A stretch of DNA of 64,000 nucleotides from Escherichia phage KKE7M, in the sequence record PQ356295.1; one strand, given 5' to 3'. Every line of letters starts with the position of its first letter. Within the stretch, counting starts at the first letter, position 1. Below the pieces are notes generated by a model. It searched no databases. It worked only from the letters and a program-made list of their open reading frames with translations, and was not told the DNA's origin. The position numbers and the translations under genes were made by a program. Below are positions 2,543 through 59,276 of this stretch, piece after piece.

Positions 2543-3427
2543 ATGTTTGCTAAAAATTTCAAATCTTGCGTAACCCTGATTTCTGGTGATGGCCTGTCTA
2601 TTTCAGCACTGAACACAGTAACAGACAAACCGCTGGATTTTGTTGTGGCACAGGGGCAACAAGCACATACCATTGGTCTTGTTCGTTTTGAAGATGATGG
2701 TTCCTATGTAAAAGTGTTCTCTGGTTTAGAGGTTATTAAAGTAGGGCAATCTGTTAAGAAAGTTAACAAGAAGAAAGTTAAACGCATTCTTAATGAAAAA
2801 CTCCAGGAGATGGAACAAGAGTTTATTGCTGCAAATCCTACTAAAGAATTCTTCTTGGATAAAGAAAGTAAAAAAGCAATTGAGGCTGATATCGTGTTTT
2901 CTCTGCTTCCAGAAACAGAGGCAGATGATTTCTACAACTATGTTGTTGTAGACACTGAAAACAGTATTACCTATGTTCTTAATGGTTCTAAGAAAATTAG
3001 TGAAGATATTGCTGTATTTCTTCGTGAGGTGTTGGGTACTTTCCCAGTTCTGCCGTTTAGTGTACACGAAGAAGCCATTATTAAAGGTTTTGATACCATC
3101 TTAGAAGAACATGAGGCTGAACGACTGACCCTGGGTAATTATATTAAACTTGAAGATTCTGAAGGTGTGGTTGTATGGAGTAAAGAGTCCCTTTATGAAT
3201 CTCGTGCAGTAGAACTTATGGAAGATGGTAAGCACGTTGTTGCCATTGGCCTGGAATATGACGGTTTCGTTAACTTTATTGTCGATAAAGAATTTAAGTT
3301 GAGTGGTATTAAATTCCCTAAATACTTTAACGATGAAGAAGGATCTTTTGAAGCATCTGTCCTTCTGTGCTTTAATGAAATCCGTGGTATTATGCAAGAC
3401 CTTATCAAGTCAACTATTCAAAAATAA
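2543..3427 (+). CDS. RdgC-like recombination-associated protein (294 aa)
   Basis: ATG 2543 after GAGGAG; MFAKNFK N-terminus and LLP...VVDTEN...LREVLGTFPVLPF segment resemble RdgC. Confidence 0.5.
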   Translation: MFAKNFKSCVTLISGDGLSISALNTVTDKPLDFVVAQGQQAHTIGLVRFEDDGSYVKVFSGLEVIKVGQSVKKVNKKKVKRILNEKLQEMEQEFIAANPTKEFFLDKESKKAIEADIVFSLLPETEADDFYNYVVVDTENSITYVLNGSKKISEDIAVFLREVLGTFPVLPFSVHEEAIIKGFDTILEEHEAERLTLGNYIKLEDSEGVVVWSKESLYESRAVELMEDGKHVVAIGLEYDGFVNFIVDKEFKLSGIKFPKYFNDEEGSFEASVLLCFNEIRGIMQDLIKSTIQK

Positions 3428-3430
3428 TAC

Positions 3431-3488
3431 TTGACTTACTAATTTAATATGTGTTAATATGCCTACCTACTTAGTTAGGTGGGCTTTT
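3431..3488 (+). promoter_or_regulatory. sigma70-like promoter (TTGACT-N17/18-TAATAT) followed by stem-loop GCCTACCTA/TAGGTGGGC and T tract
   Basis: Read directly; lies between genes ending 3427 and starting 3502. Confidence 0.45.
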
Positions 3489-42820: not shown

Positions 42821-43186
42821 CTATTCAATGCAAGCATTATTTGCATCTTCGATTCTGTCTTTCACCCACTGCAATCTCTTTGGGTTGGTATGGCAAGAAT
42901 GTGTCTTACCTTCATCTTCATAACACAGAAGATCATAATTAAAGGGTAGGAAGGAGGATAGCCCAGCACACGTGAATTGCAGTTTCATCTCTTCCAGTGT
43001 TTTACTACGAACCATCTTGAAATATTCTATATCTTCTTCCGTAGGTTTTTTCTTTGACATAGTGGTTGCCAGGTAATCCATAAGGCAATTACACAAACCA
43101 ACATTCTCACGATGCATTGAGGAATGATCTTCCATCCATGCTTTGTAAAATTCTAACAGCAGAGGACTGCTAAGAGGAACACACAT
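42821..43186 (-). CDS. hypothetical protein, paralog family member 3 (121 aa)
   Basis: Start refined (AAGGAG RBS); SPLLLEFYKAW, GLCNCL, LPFN, RLQWVKDRI. Confidence 0.5.
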   Translation of the reverse strand: MCVPLSSPLLLEFYKAWMEDHSSMHRENVGLCNCLMDYLATTMSKKKPTEEDIEYFKMVRSKTLEEMKLQFTCAGLSSFLPFNYDLLCYEDEGKTHSCHTNPKRLQWVKDRIEDANNACIE

Positions 43187-43546
43187 ATCAGACTCCTTTA
43201 TAAATTTACGTTTCATGCTACACATCATACAGCGTCTTTTCATCTATTACAAGAACAGCAACCTAGAAACATCATTAATAGAGGAATTAGTATAGGATTT
43301 CCCTATCAATTATTCTATATATACCTAATATTTTTAACACACCCCTTTGTACATAATATAGACAAATAAATATCTATGCCACAAAAATTTTCCGGTATAC
43401 CCGATTTATTTCGACACACCCCCTTTTCATAAGCGTAAAGCCAATAATATCAATAACTTGCCGCAAAATACTGCTCGCTTGCGAGAGGTGCTTAACGCGA
43501 TTTTTAGCGCCCCCGATTTCTGCCGACCGTCCCCCTCAAATATCAA

Positions 43547-43561
43547 TGAGAATTATTATCA
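43547..43561. promoter_or_regulatory. Fur-box-like 7-1-7 palindrome TGAGAATTATTATCA
   Basis: 14/15 match to TGATAAT-N-ATTATCA. Confidence 0.45.
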
Positions 43562-43741
43562 TTTGCATTATCATTCAATGACTTATAAGACTTTTGATTA
43601 TTTTCTGAGCAAGAAAGGCACTACTCACAACAAAACAGATAAATTATAAGTAAATCAATGACTTGGCAAGTCTAAACATCTATATACACCTTGCCAAATG
43701 AAATGATCCTGCGTGAAATAGTGCTACCCGTGGAAGATAGC

Positions 43742-43756
43742 TGATAATGATTATCA
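43742..43756. promoter_or_regulatory. Fur-box-like palindrome TGATAATGATTATCA (perfect 7-1-7 match), with TATACT -10-like hexamer 14 bp downstream
   Basis: Exact match to Fur 7-1-7 consensus TGATAAT-N-ATTATCA. Confidence 0.55.
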
Positions 43757-44279
43757 TTTGCATATTTTCTATACTATAAAACTACCTAAAAATCAAGATA
43801 ATTCTGATTTATTGCGCTTTTAAGAGAATAGGCTCAACAAATAGGCTATAACTATGCTCAACAAATGATAGGTTATATGGGGCAATAGTATGAAAAACCA
43901 TCTATTCAGATATAAATAATTTTGCGCAATAATGGTGATATTTTTCTTGACAAGAAAGATTTCTTTGTGTTCACATAGCGTCCCCTGGAAGGTGGCGCAT
44001 TATGATCATCAATGTCATTGTTCACGATGTTTATTATTGAATAGCTTATTATATGTAGCTTATATTATAGCCAATGTTCCAAACATTAGCTAATAATAAC
44101 GCACCGCAACAATGTAAGGGATACAATATACCATGTATATTGTTGCGCTTGCAATTGTTGCAAGCTACATAAGCACAAATAATAACTATCGGTGATGGTT
44201 ATTATGTGGGGTGTGTAGTTGCGTTATTATTAGCCGCCTATGTGTCCGGCATAGGCTGCTAATGATACGCTTGCTAATT

Positions 44280-44640
44280 ATATTTCTTGTTATAATTATT
44301 GTATGAAATGATTACGGTATGAAATGATTATTTAGGTAATAGATAGTAAGGTAAAGATTAGATCATAAATAGATAGGATATTAATTATTTAGTAATGTTA
44401 CTAACAATTTAATAGTTACTTTGTGCAACAATTCGATAGATTATAGTTATAGTTTTAAAGGTTAGATAGATTATATTTAGCTTGGTAATGATTTATATTA
44501 GTTATTGTTGTTTAATATAAGGTTATCAATGAGATAGTAACAGTAAGTTATAAATAAAGGTGAAATAATTAGCTTTAATTTAGTTAGATAACTTATTATT
44601 TTATAGGTTAGATGGTCATAAGTTAAGAATGATTATCATT
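44280..44640. repeat. AT-rich iteron-like repeat block (TAGATAG repeats, 14-bp direct repeat GTATGAAATGATTA x2)
   Basis: Read directly; ORF-free. Confidence 0.5.
44624..44638. promoter_or_regulatory. Fur-box-like palindrome TAAGAATGATTATCA
   Basis: 13/15 match to 7-1-7 consensus. Confidence 0.4.
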
Positions 44641-44681
44641 ATTGCATTATGCAGTTTATTGCATAAATAATCAGCTATAAA

Positions 44682-44696
44682 TGAGAATGATTATTA
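44682..44696. promoter_or_regulatory. Fur-box-like palindrome TGAGAATGATTATTA
   Basis: 13/15 match to 7-1-7 consensus. Confidence 0.4.
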
Positions 44697-44903
44697 TTTA
44701 AGAGGAAAGACAAGAAAAAGGCTGTTTTTGCCAGATAGTTACATGGAGAAATTAAAAATAAGCGGTCTAAAACACGTTGTAAGCGCCTTATGATCTTCAT
44801 GGTATGGTTGTTCATCTGCTCCTTGATTAGCTCGATACCGCGATCTATTCACTTTTTTCGGTGAACGTTTTTGATAGGTAAAAGCTATCATCTTTATTTA
44901 GGT

Positions 44904-51714: not shown

Positions 51715-51739
51715 GGTGTTTTCTCCTTTTGTGTATTCT

Positions 51740-51793
51740 GGGAAGTTTTCCCGTTTACGTGTTTAAGTATATCGATTTTAGTTATCTTGTCAA
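51740..51793 (-). promoter_or_regulatory. promoter plus short stem-loop (GGGAA-GTT-TTCCC)
   Basis: TTGACA rc at 51788-51793. Confidence 0.4.
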
Positions 51794-51801
51794 TATTATT
51801 T

Positions 51802-52029
51802 TTAGTTTAACTGATCCAGGCACAACAAGCGATCAACATTTAGATCGGTTAGGCTAATCGTTGGCACTTGGTAGGCTTCGATGTACTCAACGCTCGACCA
51901 TTGCCCAAAGTTAGCGACCGCCCAGCTATTCAAGGAGGAGTGAAGATCATCCCCTTTCTTCTCGGTGATAACTGCTACTACCTGGGATATTCCAACCGTG
52001 CCGGATACGCGAACAATAACGATAGCCAT
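51802..52029 (-). CDS. hypothetical protein (75 aa)
   Basis: ORF. Confidence 0.45.
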   Translation of the reverse strand: MAIVIVRVSGTVGISQVVAVITEKKGDDLHSSLNSWAVANFGQWSSVEYIEAYQVPTISLTDLNVDRLLCLDQLN

Positions 52030-52051
52030 AATGTTAACCTTTCTTTGATTT

Positions 52052-52111
52052 GGCGGGAAACCATTTCCCGCCCTATGCGATAAACTATACCAGATTAAAA
52101 AACGTTGTCAA
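52052..52111 (-). promoter_or_regulatory. promoter plus stem-loop cassette
   Basis: TTGACA-N16-TATAGT then GGCGGGAAATGGTTTCCCGCC. Confidence 0.55.
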
Positions 52112-52120
52112 CTGCTTTTA

Positions 52121-52360
52121 TTACATTCCTACCATAGCGGCGCGGATACTGGTTTTACTGAATTTATAGCCATCTGGCGTAGTATTTTGGCCCATTTCGT
52201 TAAGTAGTGACATCATTTCACGCGCGGCGTTATCTTTATTGTTGTTCACGGCTATAAATTCTTTTGCCATATTATAAAAACCTGGATCGTTATTAATCCA
52301 AAGGCTTACATTCCAATGAGTTTTATTTTTGTGACCGTTGTACATTTTAGATTTAGCCAT
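52121..52360 (-). CDS. hypothetical protein (79 aa)
   Basis: ORF. Confidence 0.45.
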   Translation of the reverse strand: MAKSKMYNGHKNKTHWNVSLWINNDPGFYNMAKEFIAVNNNKDNAAREMMSLLNEMGQNTTPDGYKFSKTSIRAAMVGM

Positions 52361-52384
52361 GATGTTAATCTCTTTTTCAGTGAG

Positions 52385-52442
52385 GCGGGAACTATTCCCG
52401 CTCTCGATATAAGTATTATATGCTTTTTATTCGTGCTGTCAA
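52385..52442 (-). promoter_or_regulatory. promoter plus stem-loop cassette
   Basis: TTGACA-N16-TATAAT (perfect -10) then GCGGGAATAGTTCCCGC. Confidence 0.55.
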
Positions 52443-52448
52443 TGCTTT

Positions 52449-52814
52449 TTATAAATCTTTTTTGCGTTTAACATCGCTTGCATGACTGTATACAGCGATC
52501 CCATTGTCACGGCAAAAACGGGAAAGGTAAGCATAATTTGAAAAGTCTTTACCTTCCAGGTTGATAACCTTGCTAAACTCTTCCAGGGCAACGGTATCAA
52601 AATGATCACCATAACCATATTGAAACGGAACGTTAACGACTTCAATCAGTTTACCGCCGATCTCAACGTCAACCATCAAAGAGAAATAAGTATTACCATA
52701 CGACTTTTGAAACCAGCGACGGGCGCTAATATGTACCGCTTCAATGCTGGATAGCTCAATTTTAGCAGTGTTAGCCAGGGTAGCATAAGCAGAAACATTG
52801 ATATTTTTAGCCAT
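52449..52814 (-). CDS. hypothetical protein (121 aa)
   Basis: ORF. Confidence 0.5.
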   Translation of the reverse strand: MAKNINVSAYATLANTAKIELSSIEAVHISARRWFQKSYGNTYFSLMVDVEIGGKLIEVVNVPFQYGYGDHFDTVALEEFSKVINLEGKDFSNYAYLSRFCRDNGIAVYSHASDVKRKKDL

Positions 52815-52909
52815 AGTCTTTAATCTCTTTTGATTAGTTAGGAGTATTCCCGATAAAAGTTATTATGCTTGTGCTATCGTTCGTTGTCAATAGCACAAGA
52901 CTAAAACTT

Positions 52910-53089
52910 TTAACGATAATCATCATAGGCTTTATTGACCTGGCGAATATAGCATTCAAAAGCTAGATCAATAGATTTATATTCACGGATATAATCACCA
53001 TAGGAAACCACATACATTTCTATAGCTTCCTCATATGCCAGGATGATAGAATCTAAACCTACGATCTCAGTCTTTGCAATAATAGCCAT
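52910..53089 (-). CDS. hypothetical protein (59 aa)
   Basis: Below cutoff; own promoter TTGACA (rc 53149-53154) and TATAAT. Confidence 0.35.
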   Translation of the reverse strand: MAIIAKTEIVGLDSIILAYEEAIEMYVVSYGDYIREYKSIDLAFECYIRQVNKAYDDYR

Positions 53090-53176
53090 GCTTTTATTCC
53101 TTAGTAATGTTTCAATCTATATAAGCATTATAGCTTACTGATTTCAGGTGTCAAGTGATTTTTTATTTCACCTTAT

Positions 53177-53232
53177 GGGGCGTTGCCCCGCTTTATGTGG
53201 TACATATTACGGGGCTTATTTGCATATGTCAA
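53177..53232 (-). promoter_or_regulatory. promoter plus stem-loop cassette (GGGGC-GTT-GCCCC)
   Basis: TTGACA rc 53227-53232. Confidence 0.45.
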
Positions 53233-53235
53233 GCC

Positions 53236-53790
53236 TTACACAATGCAATTTTCATAATTTTTTAGGGCTTGTCTTTTTTCCTCTTCTGTCGGCATGTATG
53301 GCTGGATCTCTTCCTCTTCCAGAGTAGGCATGATTTCTTCCTCTTCCTCCTGGTCGCCCTGGTCTTCCTCTTGCGCTATGGTAACAAGTTTATTGATCTT
53401 CTCCTGGGCTTTAATCAATTTTGCATCTAGCACCATTTTAGCGGTGTTGTATACAGTCCAGGCCATGCGCTTTTCTTCGTATGCCTTATCTAGTGCGGCT
53501 AATTTAGCGGGATACTCTTCCAACACCTTAAAAGCCGGATCAATGTTGTACAAGGGATTATTTTTAGCGTCATCGCTTGGATCTGCGGCGCTTGCAATGT
53601 CAGCGTTACCATTCGCCAGCCATCCAGGACGAACGGATCGCGTCCTGGTGTTGCCGTTGCTCTTTGCCGCTCGATTTCCTATCTGCTCCCCGCTATACCC
53701 TACCATGTGATCGATCATGTCATCTGGTATTATGCGCGGATCATTTGCGTCATGCTTTACCCAGGACTGGATCACATATTCACGCCCCAT
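53236..53790 (-). CDS. hypothetical protein with acidic C-terminal tail (184 aa)
   Basis: ORF. Confidence 0.5.
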   Translation of the reverse strand: MGREYVIQSWVKHDANDPRIIPDDMIDHMVGYSGEQIGNRAAKSNGNTRTRSVRPGWLANGNADIASAADPSDDAKNNPLYNIDPAFKVLEEYPAKLAALDKAYEEKRMAWTVYNTAKMVLDAKLIKAQEKINKLVTIAQEEDQGDQEEEEEIMPTLEEEEIQPYMPTEEEKRQALKNYENCIV

Positions 53791-53791
53791 G

Positions 53792-54052
53792 CTAGTTCGC
53801 CTCTTCTGTTAGTAGTTTACATACCTTAAACATGCTTGCAGCGTCTTTTGACGGTAGCCAGCCTATTCGATACACTCCAGGATCTGGATTAGTTACATCA
53901 GTCAGTTGCGCGTTGCGATGATTAAAAATAGTGTAACCGCCGCCAGCACGGGGATAAACATTATCTTTAAACCTGATAGCGTATCTCGCCAGGTCGAACG
54001 TTGTAGCATGTTCAAAAGCGATCACATTATCAAAAACTTTTAGAAAAAACAA
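53792..54052 (-). CDS. hypothetical protein (86 aa)
   Basis: TTG start after GGGGAGGA. Confidence 0.45.
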   Translation of the reverse strand: MFFLKVFDNVIAFEHATTFDLARYAIRFKDNVYPRAGGGYTIFNHRNAQLTDVTNPDPGVYRIGWLPSKDAASMFKVCKLLTEEAN

Positions 54053-54220
54053 GATTATCCTCCCCAGCGTTTAAAGCCCGTTGCACGGTTATTTTTTAGC
54101 TCTCGTTTTAGTCTCTTGCAACGGTTTACAAGTGCAAACCGTGCCGGAGTCGTAACAGTAGCGCCGTTTTTGGTATGAATACTCATTACATATTGTTTCA
54201 TAAAGTTTTATCCTATATAA

Positions 54221-54273
54221 GCGGGAACAATTCCCGCTTTAAGATAGCTTATCAGGTTTTAGTGCAATGTCAA
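54221..54273 (-). promoter_or_regulatory. promoter plus stem-loop cassette
   Basis: Hairpin GCGGGAACAATTCCCGC 54221-54237; TTGACA rc 54268-54273. Confidence 0.5.
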
Positions 54274-54279
54274 CCGTTT

Positions 54280-54642
54280 TTATTCGTAAATTTTACCGCT
54301 TTCTACCCATACCATAACACGGCGCATGTTATCCCATGCATCTTGTTGCAGATTTAAGGCATGCAATTCTTCCGTGGTGCTCATACCTAGAACGGGCTTG
54401 CTATATGTTACAAAGAGATCGCCAGCATATTCATAAGCCAGGGTAAGATCACATTGAATCATCTTTTTAATCATAGCATCAAGCATCATATTAGCGGCAT
54501 GTTGATCACGTTTCAGCGGTAACGTTGCGATCTGTGTGCGATAGCTTTCGATCCGTGCATCCACTGCATCACGCGAAAGGTTTTTCACGTCATCGCGGAA
54601 AGATACCAGATTAAACATGATAGTATTGATTTGCTTGCTCAT
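54280..54642 (-). CDS. hypothetical protein (120 aa)
   Basis: ORF. Confidence 0.5.
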   Translation of the reverse strand: MSKQINTIMFNLVSFRDDVKNLSRDAVDARIESYRTQIATLPLKRDQHAANMMLDAMIKKMIQCDLTLAYEYAGDLFVTYSKPVLGMSTTEELHALNLQQDAWDNMRRVMVWVESGKIYE

Positions 54643-54664
54643 TGTGTTACCCTTTCTTTGATTT

Positions 54665-54724
54665 GGCGGGAAACCATTTCCCGCCTTATGTGGTATATAT
54701 TACCAGATTATTTTTCAGTGTCAA
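54665..54724 (-). promoter_or_regulatory. promoter plus stem-loop cassette
   Basis: Hairpin 54665-54685; TTGACA rc 54719-54724. Confidence 0.55.
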
Positions 54725-54727
54725 GCC

Positions 54728-55000
54728 TTAAAACAAAAATGCTATATCTTGCGCTTTTAGTGTAGTGTCGATCATTTTCGGGCTTTTATAATCGACAAAG
54801 CGCGCGGTTTTTTCAATAACGAAGCCGAGGTAATCTTGTTTATTGAAATCACATTCTTTTTTAAATGTTTCCCGTGCCACTGTGATCGCTGCGTCCAGGG
54901 ATAAACGTCCATCAATATTGATGTTAGCGAAAGATCCGCCACCGCGCATAGGTTTACCAGTGATACCCTTTACGATCATTGATGCGCTATATGATGCCAT
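54728..55000 (-). CDS. hypothetical protein (90 aa)
   Basis: ORF. Confidence 0.45.
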   Translation of the reverse strand: MASYSASMIVKGITGKPMRGGGSFANINIDGRLSLDAAITVARETFKKECDFNKQDYLGFVIEKTARFVDYKSPKMIDTTLKAQDIAFLF

Positions 55001-55024
55001 GATTATTTCTCTCTTCTGTTATGA

Positions 55025-55080
55025 GCGGCACTATTGCCGCCCTATGTGATACATCTTATCAGATTAAAAAACGTTGTCAA
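55025..55080 (-). promoter_or_regulatory. promoter plus stem-loop cassette
   Basis: TTGACA-N16-TAAGAT then GCGGCAATAGTGCCGC. Confidence 0.5.
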
Positions 55081-55089
55081 GAATATTTT

Positions 55090-55185
55090 TTAGAAAATAA
55101 CAACCGCTACTACAATCCAAAATGGAACGGCTAGAATGATAGCGTTAATCGTTCCAACCGTCAAGCTGTTTTCTTTCTTGATCAT
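55090..55185 (-). CDS. small membrane peptide (31 aa)
   Basis: Hydrophobic; strong promoter TTGACG-N17-TATTAT upstream; short. Confidence 0.3.
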   Translation of the reverse strand: MIKKENSLTVGTINAIILAVPFWIVVAVVIF

Positions 55186-55451
55186 CGTTATCAACCTTTT
55201 ATAAGTAATGTTATTGTGACGGTGGATTGTGGAGATCCTCACCTTTGCCCGTCCTGCATTGCACCCGCCTTTTATTTATTGTCGTTGTGCCTTGCCCCCC
55301 TCGACAAGATGAATAATATGTTATTACCCTGGTAACGTCAACCATTTTTTTAATCTTTTTTCATTTCTTTTTTGCTTGCTATCTATAAAGGAAACGGCTA
55401 TTATCTTTCTACCGCGCCAACCAGGGCGCACATCAAAGAAAGGGCGATACC

Positions 55452-55718
55452 ATGACAAATACTCCTTTACATCTCATGCACTCATTGGGCTGGCAAGGCG
55501 GCACGGTGCACCAGGTAGCAAGCGCAACGGGCTTAAAGGTTGAAACCGTTCTCAACCTGGGCGATCATAAGGTGGAAGAGATAGATCATTTTGATACGTT
55601 CGCAAATGGTTATCTATGGGCTTGCAGTGGCGGCGGGGAAAGCAAGATCCCACCAGGGGCGCGGGGCGACATGTATTTTTGGTTAGGTGTCCTATCCTGG
55701 CAAGAAAACAAAAAATAA
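55452..55718 (+). CDS. hypothetical protein (88 aa)
   Basis: ORF; promoter-like TTGCTA-N17-TATTAT upstream. Confidence 0.45.
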   Translation: MTNTPLHLMHSLGWQGGTVHQVASATGLKVETVLNLGDHKVEEIDHFDTFANGYLWACSGGGESKIPPGARGDMYFWLGVLSWQENKK

Positions 55719-55721
55719 TCT

Positions 55722-55750
55722 TGACAAGCCCAGGGATCGGGCTTATACTG
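55722..55750 (+). promoter_or_regulatory. sigma70-like promoter TTGACA-N17-TATACT
   Basis: Points into ORF-free Fur-box/repeat region. Confidence 0.4.
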
Positions 55751-55981
55751 TTTTACATACAGAAGAGGAAGCGCCACCCCCACGGCGTAAAGGCGGGGCT
55801 AACATACCAGGGGGGCACTGGTTGGAAGGTTGATCGCCGGTAGCTCGTCTAAAATAAATTTGTAAAGAAATGTAAAGATAAAAATAATCGCTTGCTTTTG
55901 TTGTTGGTTATGCTATTCTTATTGTATGGCGAGGGGACACGGGAGCGCGAGACAAACACCACCCCTGCGCGTTATTCTCTA

Positions 55982-56000
55982 AATGAGAAAAATTCTCATT
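55982..56000. promoter_or_regulatory. palindrome AATGAGAA-AAA-TTCTCATT
   Basis: Perfect inverted repeat related to adjacent Fur-box-like sites. Confidence 0.4.
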
Positions 56001-56024
56001 TGCTAACGATTCTCATTCTCTTAC

Positions 56025-56039
56025 TGAGAATGATTATCA
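56025..56039. promoter_or_regulatory. Fur-box-like palindrome TGAGAATGATTATCA
   Basis: 14/15 match to 7-1-7 consensus. Confidence 0.5.
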
Positions 56040-56053
56040 CTTACATAATTAAA

Positions 56054-56068
56054 TGATAATGATTCTCA
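56054..56068. promoter_or_regulatory. Fur-box-like palindrome TGATAATGATTCTCA
   Basis: 14/15 match. Confidence 0.5.
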
Positions 56069-56076
56069 TTTACAAA

Positions 56077-56091
56077 TGAGAATGATTATCA
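56077..56091. promoter_or_regulatory. Fur-box-like palindrome TGAGAATGATTATCA
   Basis: 14/15 match. Confidence 0.5.
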
Positions 56092-56116
56092 TACGCACAC
56101 CTATAAAAACACGAAA

Positions 56117-56320
56117 TTGAACTTTTCATTTTTGATTTTTCTACGGAAAAAGGCAAAAAAACTTTAAATAAACTGGGGAATTTTTAAAAAATTGAAGTTT
56201 TCATTTTCAAAATCTGGATAGAAATACATACAAAAACTTTAAATAATTTTGACCAAACTTGAACTTTTCATTTTCTAAATTTGTACCCAAAAATCTGTAA
56301 AAACTTTAAATAATTTTGTA
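56117..56320. repeat. three tandem ~67-77 bp repeat units, each with boxes TTGAA(C/G)TTTTCATTTT and AAAAACTTTAAATAA
   Basis: Box 1 at 56117, 56192, 56259; box 2 at 56154, 56231, 56300. Confidence 0.6.
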
Positions 56321-56532
56321 CTTTTTATAAAAATGATTTTACTGTTCTGTTATAAGTAGTAGTTAAGAGATAGTATGTCTTTTAAAGATCAGATACCATA
56401 GTCCAACAAACAAATTAAATACTTTATTAACAGGGTATAGAATACTACTTACTCTGGATATATTATTCAGAGGGTGAATTTCCGTACATGAAACCCACAC
56501 CCCTTTTTATAAAAATAAAAATTTTCAAAATA

Positions 56533-57084
56533 TCAGGAAATATCAGATTGTGCTTTTAGATAAACAGCAAGGTCTGTATGCCATTTTCCTAAAAGATTTT
56601 GTCCTTTCCAACAATCCTTATTTTCCACGTCACGATCCCACATCCCCATTTTGATACCATAAATAGAATCATAAGGGCTTGCCTCTACGAACTCCTTATC
56701 TGCGTAAGCGATAAGTTTATTTTTGAGATCTTCATTTTGTGTGTATTTAAGATACAAACCACGCTTGACAATCTTCTCCCGTAAAGAAGCCCAAGTATCT
56801 TCATCGTAATCTTTAACTAATCTACCTAGTCGCTTATAATATGCCTGTTCTTTTTCTCCTGTATATCTTAGATCTCCGGTTAAAATAGAAGATGCAATGT
56901 TGTAATCATAAAACAAACATGCTTTTCTCCACATCATATATTGTTCCACACAAGTAAATTCAACAGAACTTGTAATAGAATTATTATACTTGGGTGCTAA
57001 AGGTTCAATAAAAGATGATAGATACCAGTTGCTAAATTCATCTTTTGCTGAAAAGAAGAACACATACTTATCAGTAATCCGCAT
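56533..57084 (-). CDS. NADAR (YbiA-like) family protein
   Basis: VFFFSAKDEFSNW and CVEQYMMWRKACLF match YbiA FYS...FSNF and SEHYFQAQKF; NLLGKWHTDLAVYL C-terminal match. Confidence 0.65.
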   Translation of the reverse strand: MRITDKYVFFFSAKDEFSNWYLSSFIEPLAPKYNNSITSSVEFTCVEQYMMWRKACLFYDYNIASSILTGDLRYTGEKEQAYYKRLGRLVKDYDEDTWASLREKIVKRGLYLKYTQNEDLKNKLIAYADKEFVEASPYDSIYGIKMGMWDRDVENKDCWKGQNLLGKWHTDLAVYLKAQSDIS

Positions 57085-58074
57085 TTACATCTCCTTACTG
57101 TATACTAATTTGCCACCATATTGTGTAATAATTTTTTGAAGATTTTCCAAATCAGAAACACTTACTGTTTCTGTATAACCGTCTTTCAACTCTCTTTCCG
57201 TTAAAATACCAGTTTTTAATTTTTTCTTTATAGCTCTTTCAGCAGCCTTACATTGTTTTACTGTGCTAAAATCATATAAACAAATACGCTCCATAGGAAA
57301 CATATTACGGCTATTTTGAATTTTTAATCGTCTATCACTATCTTTAGCTATACCAAACTTAAGAGCAACTATAATATTATCATCCTTAACAATATTAATA
57401 TATAACTGCTGCTGACTATGACCAGCACACATAGGACAACCTCGACCGAGGCTTAATAAATTATGAGCACTCCCTATCTGCTCACCATGCACAAGACAAA
57501 AATATTTAAACTTACCTATAGAAGAGGGTTTGGTAATCCAATCTACCCAGACATACCCTTTCCCTTCTACTTCCTTTTTTACCCTATAGGTGATCTGGTC
57601 TTCTGTATACCGATAGTTCCCACAACGACACGGAATATACCCTCGTTTAAGGTTATCTCCTTCAGAGTAAAATTTACCATCACAAACACCTGCTTGAACA
57701 TATTCATCATGAGAGCAAACAGGACATTCAACCATCCAGATAATATTCCTACATCCTTTACCCCGTGTTCCTGTGTTAGTGAAGATAGTGCCTTCCTTAA
57801 ATTCCCCTGTAGAAAAGAAATCTGCAATATGTTGATCGTCGGACATTGTTTGTGACTTCCTTATATTCTTCCTCCTACATTGTGGACAACCGCTACCACA
57901 TTTAAAACTGTTAATACTTGTAGTATCCCATTTATAACCACAATGGCACAACAAATCAAGTTTTGTGTGGACCCCTTTCCATTGTCCCGTCCATCCTAAG
58001 ATTTGGATTTGCTTACTCTCTGCTATTGGTATACACTCTTCTTTATATTGTTCCCATGATTTTGGTGCTGCCAT
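57085..58074 (-). CDS. T5orf172 (GIY-YIG-like) domain protein with N-terminal zinc-ribbon repeats (329 aa)
   Basis: Repeated CxxC pairs; C-terminal LYINIVKDDNIIVALKFGIAKDSDRRLKIQN resembles T5orf172 domain. Confidence 0.45.
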   Translation of the reverse strand: MAAPKSWEQYKEECIPIAESKQIQILGWTGQWKGVHTKLDLLCHCGYKWDTTSINSFKCGSGCPQCRRKNIRKSQTMSDDQHIADFFSTGEFKEGTIFTNTGTRGKGCRNIIWMVECPVCSHDEYVQAGVCDGKFYSEGDNLKRGYIPCRCGNYRYTEDQITYRVKKEVEGKGYVWVDWITKPSSIGKFKYFCLVHGEQIGSAHNLLSLGRGCPMCAGHSQQQLYINIVKDDNIIVALKFGIAKDSDRRLKIQNSRNMFPMERICLYDFSTVKQCKAAERAIKKKLKTGILTERELKDGYTETVSVSDLENLQKIITQYGGKLVYSKEM

Positions 58075-58148: not shown

Positions 58149-59276
58149 TTAAAACACACTTGCCAAAGTTGCACCATTGGTGATAGTTGGTTCCAGAACA
58201 ATACGGAAAGAATCTTCTGGATCATCACTAAACACAACGATTTTACCGCCTGTGATAAGATCTGCTTTCATTTTTGTCGCATTCAATGGAATTCGAGCAT
58301 CGCCTTCATCATCAAAAACCACGTAAGAGCTATTAGCAAGGGCTTCTTTAGAGTCTGCATCACTTGGAGATGACAAGTACACGTCTAGTGTGCACGAACC
58401 ACCTAAAAAGATTGCAGGTGTAAAGTTATGCCAACTAGATACCCAGCTAACTTTCTGAAGTTTTCCATTAATAACAACGCTGCTGATATCCCATTTATTA
58501 CCACCACCTAAAGAAACGCCCATCATAGAGATGCATTCTTTAAAGGATAAATCAGGGTAGAAATTAAGTTCTTCTACTATACCTTGGATCACATCAAAGG
58601 ACAACTCTAAACTTACATCCCAAAGTCTTTGGAAATTATCAAAGTGTGCTTTGTTATCCAGGTTTTTATCTAAATAGTCAATCATAGTTTCTAGTGAGAT
58701 TTTATCATAATTAAAATTATAAAACACACGACTAGGACGATTTAAAAAGAATTCAGAGATAAAACCACTGTTTTTAGTCAGAATAAACAGTTTATTACCA
58801 CTGCCAGTACCATCTAACAAAGTGAGAAGTGCTTCTTGATCTTGTTTCTTCTCATATACTTTATCAAACTCGTCAAAAATAATCACTGCTTTGTCGGTGA
58901 TCTTGCTAATAAGTTCAATGAAATTAGCATCACTGTAGGCTTGAGTAACCATAATAGTTGGAATACCTTCTTCTACAAGATCACGACTAATGAGTTTGGC
59001 TAACATAGTTTTACCACTACCCTTAGTTCCTGTCAGAAGCAAGCCTGTATTTTTACCTTGTGCACTCCGGCGATGGAATGTACGGATAACGTGATTTGCT
59101 CGTTTTTCTGTTTCACCATACAGAACATCCGGTACACCTGTTAGATTACCACGGCTTAAAAAATAATTGCCAAGGGGATCACGACTAACAGTATAGAATC
59201 CAGGTGGAAGATAGTTAGATTCCACGCCCATATCTTTATTTACACTTACAATATCACCATAAATCGTGTATTTCAT
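58149..59276 (-). CDS. AAA+ / P-loop ATPase (375 aa)
   Basis: Walker A GTKGSGKT, Walker B VIIFDEFD; C-terminal domain unassigned. Confidence 0.6.
   Translation of the reverse strand: MKYTIYGDIVSVNKDMGVESNYLPPGFYTVSRDPLGNYFLSRGNLTGVPDVLYGETEKRANHVIRTFHRRSAQGKNTGLLLTGTKGSGKTMLAKLISRDLVEEGIPTIMVTQAYSDANFIELISKITDKAVIIFDEFDKVYEKKQDQEALLTLLDGTGSGNKLFILTKNSGFISEFFLNRPSRVFYNFNYDKISLETMIDYLDKNLDNKAHFDNFQRLWDVSLELSFDVIQGIVEELNFYPDLSFKECISMMGVSLGGGNKWDISSVVINGKLQKVSWVSSWHNFTPAIFLGGSCTLDVYLSSPSDADSKEALANSSYVVFDDEGDARIPLNATKMKADLITGGKIVVFSDDPEDSFRIVLEPTITNGATLASVF

Follow-up and report, generated by a model that had tools for sequence, protein, structure and literature searches.

Three bipartite repeats in a conserved noncoding module of phi92-like phages: a probable protein-binding array and candidate replication origin

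Phages related to rV5, PVP-SE1, phi92 and phAPEC8 are widely used in therapy cocktails and phage collections, and in the papers that we found the origin of replication of these phages is unmapped. Here we describe an array of three tandem direct repeats at positions 56117-56320 of a 64,000-nucleotide stretch of Escherichia phage KKE7M (sequence record PQ356295.1); this whole stretch is hereafter called the window. The array is unique, non-coding and under selection, and it is one part of a larger conserved noncoding module rather than a stand-alone element next to Fur boxes. An earlier note on this DNA had placed the repeats beside a Fur-box array; the adjacency holds, and the larger module had been missed. 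The window derives from a phi92-like Escherichia myovirus (Justusliebigvirus, Stephanstirmvirinae). Over 55300-57300 it is 100% identical to phage 92CQ, and some 50 Justusliebigvirus genomes match this region at 97-98%; among E. coli genomes it has no match.

The array sits in a gap of about 810 bp (55720-56530) that holds no credible genes and is the one large gene-free stretch. On the left, the gap is bordered by a small + strand gene (55452-55718) and, left of 55350, by a long series of small - strand genes, which we consider to be early since the intergenic gaps examined among them carry a strong sigma70 promoter, together with a conserved 5' hairpin. On the right lies the end of a - strand operon (56533 onwards), which converges on the array and whose products are a NADAR protein, an endonuclease of the CapR/T5orf172 type and an AAA ATPase. 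The corresponding gap of phi92 bears no annotation and falls between gp223 and gp224, with only small one-strand genes between the module and the right physical end. Read along the + strand, the module is composed of promoter P1, a GC-rich segment, a CpxR-consensus box, promoter P2, a G-rich leader, Fur boxes, the repeats, AT-rich DNA, a terminator-like hairpin and a 10-bp-phased repeat.

Each repeat unit contains two boxes. Box 1 (TTGAASTTTTCATTTT) occurs exactly three times, at 56117, 56192 and 56259, and so does box 2 (AAAAACTTTAAATAA), at 56157, 56232 and 56299, each copy 40 bp after box 1. Unit 1 (56114..56188, + strand) comprises box 1 at 56117-56132 and box 2 at 56157-56171, followed by the linker CTGGGGAATTTTTAAAAAA. 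Unit 2 (56189..56255, + strand) has a TTGAAG variant of box 1 at 56192-56207, box 2 at 56232-56246 and a short linker, and unit 3 (56256..56322, + strand) carries its boxes at 56259-56274 and 56299-56313. A repeat search returned one family of three 79-nt copies, 65-72% identical, which start at 56114, 56189 and 56256 and so lie 75 and 67 bp apart. Tandem Repeats Finder (TRF) reported a period of 67, 2 copies and a score of 171 for units 2-3, unit 1 being set apart by its longer linker. The description in the earlier note, three tandem direct repeats of about 70 bp with two conserved boxes, is thus confirmed; of its period of 67-77 bp, the tandem periodicity stands, with actual spacings of 67 and 75 bp and none as long as 77.

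No open reading frame (ORF) of 40 or more amino acids is present on either strand over 56057-56362, and the small ORFs annotated across the repeats in some records are not conserved. A coding repeat was rejected on the lack of such an ORF and because the unit lengths of 67 and 75 are not both multiples of 3. A CRISPR array is not resembled either, since such arrays consist of short identical repeats (24-48 bp) with unique spacers of about the same length between them, whereas here every unit pairs two unlike boxes, each of 15-16 bp, at a constant distance, and the units differ to the extent given above. A sigma70 scan inside the array yielded a single weak 9/12 match, and the boxes lie 40 bp apart instead of at the 16-18 bp that separate promoter hexamers. 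On all three points, the judgement that the repeats are neither coding nor CRISPR-like and form no convincing sigma70 promoters has held.

The boxes are also unique. In the 64-kb window, other matches to either box have 2-3 mismatches, the same background as in dinucleotide shuffles, and the complete 148,442-bp genome of a close relative (Justusliebigvirus alia) contains no further box copy with at most one mismatch. When IMG/VR was scanned for tandem copies of box 2, only two phi92-like contigs and two unrelated coding repeats were returned. The corresponding scan of bacterial genome contigs found none in Enterobacterales; its matches, in Methanobrevibacter and Calothrix among others, were AT-rich repeats of no relation to the array. 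On these two scans, we rejected the presence of copies in the genomes of hosts, in satellites or in other viruses. Boxes spread throughout the genome, or missing from close relatives, had been named beforehand as outcomes that would speak against a specific element; neither was observed, the boxes being invariant among close relatives and the architecture being kept in distant ones.

This uniqueness bears on the idea that the units are tandem phage-specific promoters of a middle or late class, read by a redirected host RNA polymerase. The T4 late promoter is TATAAATA, and box 2 holds TTTAAATA, one mismatch away. A T4-late-like motif has moreover been reported 5' of rV5 late genes (PMC3606486). 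However, neither box recurs in the 148-kb relative genome, and neither TTTAAATA nor TATAAATA shows enrichment upstream of genes (no more than 7 intergenic copies for each motif on each strand, three of them being these repeats). In addition, no gene follows the array, and rV5-like phages lack homologues of gp33, gp45 and gp55 (PMC3606486). Tandem promoters of this kind are largely refuted and essentially excluded. A generic genome-wide promoter motif was rejected as well, on the uniqueness of the boxes and the lack of enrichment of the two cores.

In the literature searched, neither the array nor the module is described, and nothing specific to these phages was found on an origin, on repeats or on Fur boxes. 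In the genome paper on rV5, a 'non-coding' box is all that is marked, and skew analysis failed to locate the origin (PMC3606486). The record of phage inny carries a bare repeat_region feature at the array locus.

Conservation among close relatives was assessed in an alignment of the gap from seven genomes of about 97% identity, in which no other AT-rich part of the gap is as well conserved as the array. Only 7 of its 204 columns are variable, and these fall entirely in the spacers (0/93 box positions versus 7/111 spacer positions; Fisher p=0.013), compared with 30 of 160 columns in the right flank (p=1e-6 versus the array) and 18 of 142 in the Fur-box region. Unit 1 has no variable position; unit 2 has two, both in the spacer (56219 and 56228), and unit 3 has five, all outside the boxes (56276, 56286, 56288, 56296 and 56320).

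Comparison with distant lineages revealed that the layout is more stable than the sequence of the repeats. A BLAST search with the gap alone found its left 280 bp at 70-90% identity in Phapecoctavirus and Vequintavirinae, the latter including phages of Klebsiella, Cronobacter, Salmonella, Pectobacterium and Erwinia, and detected no cross-lineage similarity for the right AT-rich segment (56321-56471). At the distant loci the order is the same throughout (P1, GC-rich segment, GTAAA-N5-GTAAA, P2, leader, Fur boxes, tandem repeats), and the Fur-box array was seen in every lineage examined. Successive units are spaced by 75/67 bp in phi92-like phages, by 76/67 in the three units of Citrobacter phage Tr1 and by 75/66 in Klebsiella phage KP2025, the last two sharing box 2 with the phi92-like phages. 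In Phapecoctavirus (phAPEC8, Ro121c4YLVW and phiWec186), units 1 and 3 are kept 138-139 bp apart and the middle unit has decayed, without box 2. Three units are also present in Vequintavirinae, where seven loci, GAP31 and five IMG/VR contigs among them, are spaced at 67/74-76; further spacings in this subfamily are 66/74 in KB57, 68/74 in one contig and 63/78 in phiTE. For GEC_vB_MG and one other locus (L034), only the first interval was recovered in one spacing scan, GEC_vB_MG giving 67/75 in another. Erwinia phage pEa_SNUABM_56 (71/74) and E. coli phage A73 (64/84) have a third type of box, CCTCTCAAGT. The span from the first to the third unit is 138-148 bp in all loci.

The boxes of Vequintavirinae are entirely different from those of phi92-like phages (…GAAAAAATACG… and TCGATCGAGAACC). 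Depending on the lineage, the box type is ACTTTAAATAA, GATCGAGAACC or CCTCTCAAGT, and it tracks phage lineage, not host genus. Alignment of 12 units from four Stephanstirmvirinae gave the consensus AAAnTT(T/G)A(A/G)nTTTT(G/C)nTTTT, then some 24 free positions, GAAAAACTTTAAATAAT and often GGGGAATTTTT; the core is free of indels in 11 units of these four phages, and length changes are confined to the linker between units. In phAPEC8, Tr1 and KP2025, AAACTTTAAAT lies within box 1 itself, so that each unit holds two direct copies of the core, 46 bp apart. Spacing kept within 1-2 bp while the sequence is wholly replaced points to a constraint of double-helix geometry, that is, to a protein-DNA complex.

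Invariant boxes, fixed indel-free spacing, lineage-specific sequence and the lack of an RNA-structure signal together argue for an array of protein-binding sites that acts as DNA. We consider it likely that the array is a protein-binding DNA element of some kind. The earlier note had proposed either a replication origin or a binding array for a regulator; a protein-binding array is well supported, and for the origin the evidence is circumstantial.

The position of the array, which on the + strand has promoters upstream and, downstream, a hairpin resembling a terminator, also invites an explanation at the level of RNA. The repeats would then be part of an early noncoding RNA of about 400-600 nt, running from P2 or a promoter in the Fur boxes to the terminator at about 56510, in which three unstructured AU-rich modules bind or titrate a protein. 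This could be an RNA-binding protein of the phage, Hfq or CsrA, or else a type III toxin, as with the ToxI or pseudo-ToxI repeats. There is a precedent in phiTE, which belongs to the same subfamily group and expresses a repeated antitoxin-mimic RNA (PMC3475682). Linkers containing GGA (CTGGGGAA) recur after box 2 in several lineages, and AAAU occurs within box 2. However, folding of the RNA against shuffled sequences gave no thermodynamic signal (z-scores of -0.1 to +1.2 for five of six units, -1.7 for one and -0.6 for a 418-nt stretch), the predicted folds differ so that none is common to the units, and Rfam had no match in 54500-57000 save one chance-level hit elsewhere. Spacing conserved to 1-2 bp with the sequence replaced is more readily explained by the geometry of the DNA helix than by a flexible RNA; none of the adjacent genes encodes a toxin or an RNA-binding protein, the boxes of Vequintavirinae lack the AAAU and GGA features, and the phiTE locus is, in a comparison by eye without a search, unlike the ToxI repeat. 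A function at the RNA level seems improbable to us. A structured RNA of an Rfam family or a type III antitoxin-like RNA was rejected, there being no Rfam match, z-scores between -1.7 and +1.2 and no toxin gene downstream.

The other elements of the module deserve description in their own right. P1 (TTGACA-17-TATACT; 55721..55749, + strand) has an 11/12 match in the sigma70 scan. The GC-rich segment of about 100 nt that follows it (55757..55858, + strand) is 70-90% identical across Stephanstirmvirinae and Vequintavirinae, reaching phages of Klebsiella, Cronobacter, Pectobacterium and Erwinia; this identity is far above that of the neighbouring proteins, and the segment, which has no Rfam match, is probably an undescribed phage noncoding RNA. 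It contains a hairpin, CGCC/GGCG, and a pseudoknot is suggested by potential pairing of its loop CCCC to a GGGG farther downstream (CCAG to CTGG in Tr1). In phage cardinal, a 727-bp insertion (1620-2350 of locus L006; window ~55833-55842) falls in the 3' part of this segment, with an overlap of about 10 bp at the junction, and carries a gene of 197 amino acids that has a ribosome-binding site of its own and is probably mobile, of the homing type.

Immediately 5' of the -35 hexamer of P2 lies GTAAAGAAATGTAAA (55862..55876, + strand), an exact instance of GTAAA-N5-GTAAA, which we take to be the CpxR consensus and after which we name the box. The string GTAAAN5GTAAA also occurs in a published article (PMC4846824). 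The motif is conserved in all nine lineages compared, and through it a strictly lytic phage may read the envelope-stress response of its host. P2 itself (TTGCTT-16-TATTCT; 55892..55919, + strand), recognized by inspection of the sequence, is directed at the Fur boxes and the repeats. In other lineages P2 is stronger (TTGCAA-17-TATATT), and across the 8 lineages compared its hexamers are kept and the sequence of the spacer has diverged. The G-rich leader that follows (55925-55975) shows a potential long-range pairing, GCGAGGGG…CCCCTGCGC, and in most lineages a conserved unpaired GAGACAAACACC, which looks like the seed of a small RNA. The array of Fur-box-like palindromes (55975..56095, strand not assigned) lies directly 5' of the repeats. 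Within it, TTCTCA-18-TATCAT (56063-56092) weakly resembles a promoter, from which transcription would enter the repeats.

To the right of the repeats, a variable AT-rich segment (56321..56471, strand not assigned) with a GC content of 0.26 leads to the terminator-like hairpin GGGTGAATTTC..GAAACCCACACCC, followed by TTTTTAT (56472..56510, + strand; sequence inspection). The inner stem of this hairpin is altered in Tr1 (TTTCTG/CAGAAA), and phAPEC8 has an annotated terminator at the equivalent relative position. The right border of the module is formed by a 10-bp-phased direct repeat, AAATATCAGG AAATATCAGA (AAATATCA twice; 56528..56547, + strand), which overlaps the stop codon of the NADAR gene. 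Related copies are found at this border in all lineages, among them Tr1, KP2025, phAPEC8, KB57 and phiTE, next to different genes (NADAR, DUF6939 or phrog_12959), and may be the binding site of a conserved factor. The CapR/T5orf172 gene adjoining the module (57085-58074) encodes 329 amino acids here and 390 in JohannJBalmer, is absent from Tr1 and KP2025, and appears to be a mobile endonuclease.

Among the small genes on the left (51715-55089), most intergenic gaps contain promoters of the TTGACA-N17-TATAAT type and then, at the 5' end of the transcript, a conserved hairpin, A(T/G)AGGGCGGGAA…TTCCCGCC, that corresponds to the 'PHIRE' motif annotated in phAPEC8. Farther away, at about 43000-44700, there is a noncoding AT-rich stretch of about 1.5 kb, with a GC content of 0.20 at ~44378 and a reversal of GC skew. 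This region is syntenic with the physical ends and the 343-bp direct terminal repeat (DTR) of phi92, from which it follows that the window spans the ends of the virion DNA.

The array DNA has unusual physical properties. It is the lowest-GC 204-bp stretch of the window (0.196-0.216). In a wedge model, its curvature lies at the 99.97th percentile of the window and is the top peak of the 148-kb relative genome, ranks that are indicative and not exact. Local curvature maxima also fall on the arrays of Tr1, KP2025, phAPEC8 and A73.

Such properties are compatible with the main rival to an origin, a regulator or roadblock array modelled on the p4/p6 switch region of phi29. An early or middle phage protein would bind the six boxes, bend the DNA and act on transcription, either by blocking or modulating + strand transcription from P2 or the Fur-box promoter, or by insulating this transcription from the convergent - strand operon that ends at 56533. 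With P1, P2 and the Fur boxes on one side and the terminator-like hairpin on the other, the array is placed within a probable transcription unit of the + strand. The Fur boxes and the CpxR consensus, which resemble operators for regulators of the host, adjoin it without a break, its DNA is curved, with a T-tract and then an A-tract in each unit, and all the evidence for protein binding that serves the origin holds equally for a regulator. On the other hand, no gene starts 3' of the array, where variable noncoding DNA (about 150 bp), the terminator and then the convergent gene, with its 3' end first, are all that follows, so that no regulated product is obvious except an untranslated RNA. Furthermore, a plain roadblock would not need three units with a 67/75-bp geometry across two subfamilies. 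We regard a regulator array as possible but rather unlikely.

Our tentative preference goes to an iteron-type, transcription-activated replication origin of the phage, a reading that we hold to be a serious possibility and that stops short of being probable. The three units would be phased bipartite sites on double-stranded DNA for a sequence-specific and lineage-specific protein, most likely encoded by the phage since it differs between phage lineages. Once bound, this protein may assemble a higher-order, DNA-bending complex over about 200 bp, the array thus serving as the site where an initiator is loaded. The easily melted zone would consist of the array and the variable AT-rich 150 bp to its right, a candidate unwinding zone. 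Transcription from early P1 and P2, and possibly from a Fur-controlled promoter, would enter the array and activate or prime the origin. Transcriptional activation or priming is familiar from T4 oriF/oriG, T7, ColE1 and the lambda origin.

Several observations favour an origin. The array is a cis element without any gene to regulate; it is the most meltable DNA of the window and, by the wedge model, the most bent; strong promoters fire into it; its boxes are lineage-specific, as expected if initiator and iterons co-evolve; and a DNA-binding domain like that of the O protein is encoded nearby in a subset of relatives. As in iteron origins, the direct repeats are clustered at one locus, with three units and six boxes that are unique in 148 kb. 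A GC content of 0.20-0.22 in the array, next to the AT-rich right flank, is that of an unwinding element. The GATC-rich boxes of Vequintavirinae can also be counted here.

Several proteins were considered as the binder. In GAP31, the operon converging on the array encodes a 98-amino-acid protein with matches to HTH_36 of Pfam (4e-10) and to phrog_8102, 'replication initiation protein' (2e-34); families of O-like initiators are matched less strongly. By tblastn, this protein is found in 64 phage records of the Seuna-, Mydo- and Henunavirus type. Its gene lies about 4-5 kb from the array in GAP31, KB57 and GEC_vB_MG, the three with known array coordinates. Another candidate was the 88-amino-acid gp224-like protein (55452-55718), which has a motif resembling a helix-turn-helix (HTH), GGTVHQVA..TGL.V, common to Tr1 and phiTE_079. 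As a universal binder it was rejected because the equivalents in GAP31 and KB57 lack the HTH-like part and because the motif is similar across phages with different box types. The phrog_12959 protein beside Vequintavirinae arrays was rejected too, having no phi92-like homologue and no domain match.

A number of findings weigh against an origin. No homologue of the HTH_36 or O-like protein was found in the phi92-like genome by tblastn and profile search, nor by tblastn outside the 64 records just mentioned, so a cognate initiator in the same replicon, as iteron origins have, was not recovered in the phi92-like phage. The AAA ATPase (58149-59276) was rejected as an Orc/DnaA-like initiator, since it belongs to the classical PF00004 clade with about 390 homologues; one source labels its family as SpoVK/Ycf46/Vps4-type. 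Of the host-factor sites that are characteristic of origins in enterobacteria, the interval 56098-56386 holds no DnaA box, IHF consensus or GATC, and clusters of GATC were seen only in the Vequintavirinae arrays. The neighbours are small early genes, NADAR and a homing endonuclease, and not replication genes. The period of 67-75 bp is three times that of classical iterons, and most Vequintavirinae arrays lack the high curvature and AT-richness. In the window, GC skew has no inflection at the array, and changes of skew in rV5 are reported to track transcription only (PMC3606486). The array is inside a probable + strand transcription unit beside host-factor sites, which a regulatory role suits equally well. 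Finally, an untranslated region of T5-like phages that is analogous, in that it too combines arrays like Fur boxes with other repeats, is considered not to be an origin (bioRxiv 10.1101/866236). As no initiator was found in the phi92-like phage, we infer the function of the array, as we do protein binding, the identity of the binder and any role in replication.

The T5-like phages give rise to a further explanation, in which the array is a cis site for genome entry or related to a genome end, a counterpart of the injection stop signal (iss) of T5 that would bound a terminal block of early genes entering or acting first. In the T5-like phage Gostya9 (locus L021), about ten tandem Fur-box-like repeats of 23 bp lie at 2340-2600 beside two DnaA boxes, followed at 2630-3440 by at least 8 copies of TGTGCAAATCCGAC. 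We take this untranslated part of the terminal repeat to be Davison's Repeat Region 3, the injection-stop region. In the paper section on the Gostya9-type region, it is described as the iss region, and the repeats are not described as Fur boxes (10.1101/866236). That the corresponding region of Gostya9 combines phage-specific direct repeats with DnaA boxes and Fur-box-like arrays is a point in favour, as are the position of the phi92 module, 11.2 kb (7.6%) from the right physical end, and the small one-strand genes of early type that fill this interval. Nevertheless, there are no reports of injection in two steps for phages like rV5 or phi92, the likeness to T5 rests on Fur-box similarity alone (69 bp), and conservation of the module is just as high in phiTE. 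This phage is a generalised transducer (PMC3475682), which suggests headful packaging without fixed ends. A site of genome entry is very unlikely in our opinion. A packaging (pac/cos) site or the genome end itself was rejected, because the DTR of phi92 (148270-148612, 343 bp) is 11.2 kb from the homologous array.

Returning to the origin, one may go further and consider the whole ~810-bp module as an origin gated by the state of the host. CpxR (envelope stress) and Fur (iron) would set the level of transcription into the array, and the binder would belong to a fast-evolving, unrecognised initiator family of Vequintavirinae and Stephanstirmvirinae. Although we rate this extended version as doubtful at best, the phage, if it were true, would couple the start of replication to the physiological state of the infected cell. 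More generally, the conserved unannotated RNA, the exact CpxR consensus and the Fur-box array suggest that strictly lytic phages read the stress and iron status of their hosts, a link that, if real, would be of wider interest than the repeats alone. In any case, the array provides a concrete candidate cis element of 200 bp with six defined boxes, and three natural box variants are available for identifying the binder by its specificity.

Comparison with known systems places the array between several types of phage element. Iteron origins (ori-lambda with the O protein, P1 oriR, P4 ori/crr) likewise combine direct repeats at a unique locus with AT-rich, meltable and bent DNA; in both, the sequence of the repeats is lineage-specific and the layout kept, and transcription enters the region. 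In contrast, our array has a period of 67-75 bp with two boxes per unit and three units, instead of about 20 bp, and has neither a nearby initiator gene nor DnaA boxes. T4 oriF and oriG, in which a promoter and an unwinding element allow priming from an R-loop, resemble the module in having strong promoters directly 5' of the most AT-rich DNA of the region, and a G-rich structured leader RNA before the AT-rich part. Unlike the module, which has host sigma70-type promoters, a CpxR-consensus box and Fur boxes, the T4 origins are devoid of an iteron array.

Repeat Region 3 of T5-like phages is also a large conserved untranslated region that bounds a terminal block of early genes, contains arrays of host-factor sites (Fur-box-like sites and DnaA boxes) as well as direct repeats specific to the phage, and exceeds many genes around it in conservation. 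It differs in lying within a 10-kb terminal repeat and in its link to two-step injection, whereas phi92 has only the 343-bp DTR, 11 kb away; the repeat families are unrelated. Lastly, the p4/p6 region of phi29 and the R1-R3 sites of lambda cosB are associated with flanking early and late promoters or with a packaging site or genome end, all of which our array lacks. Like the array, however, these regions present 3-4 phased sites in 120-220 bp of bent DNA to which a small phage protein binds, and in lambda-like phages, as here, specificity has been swapped between relatives and the architecture kept.

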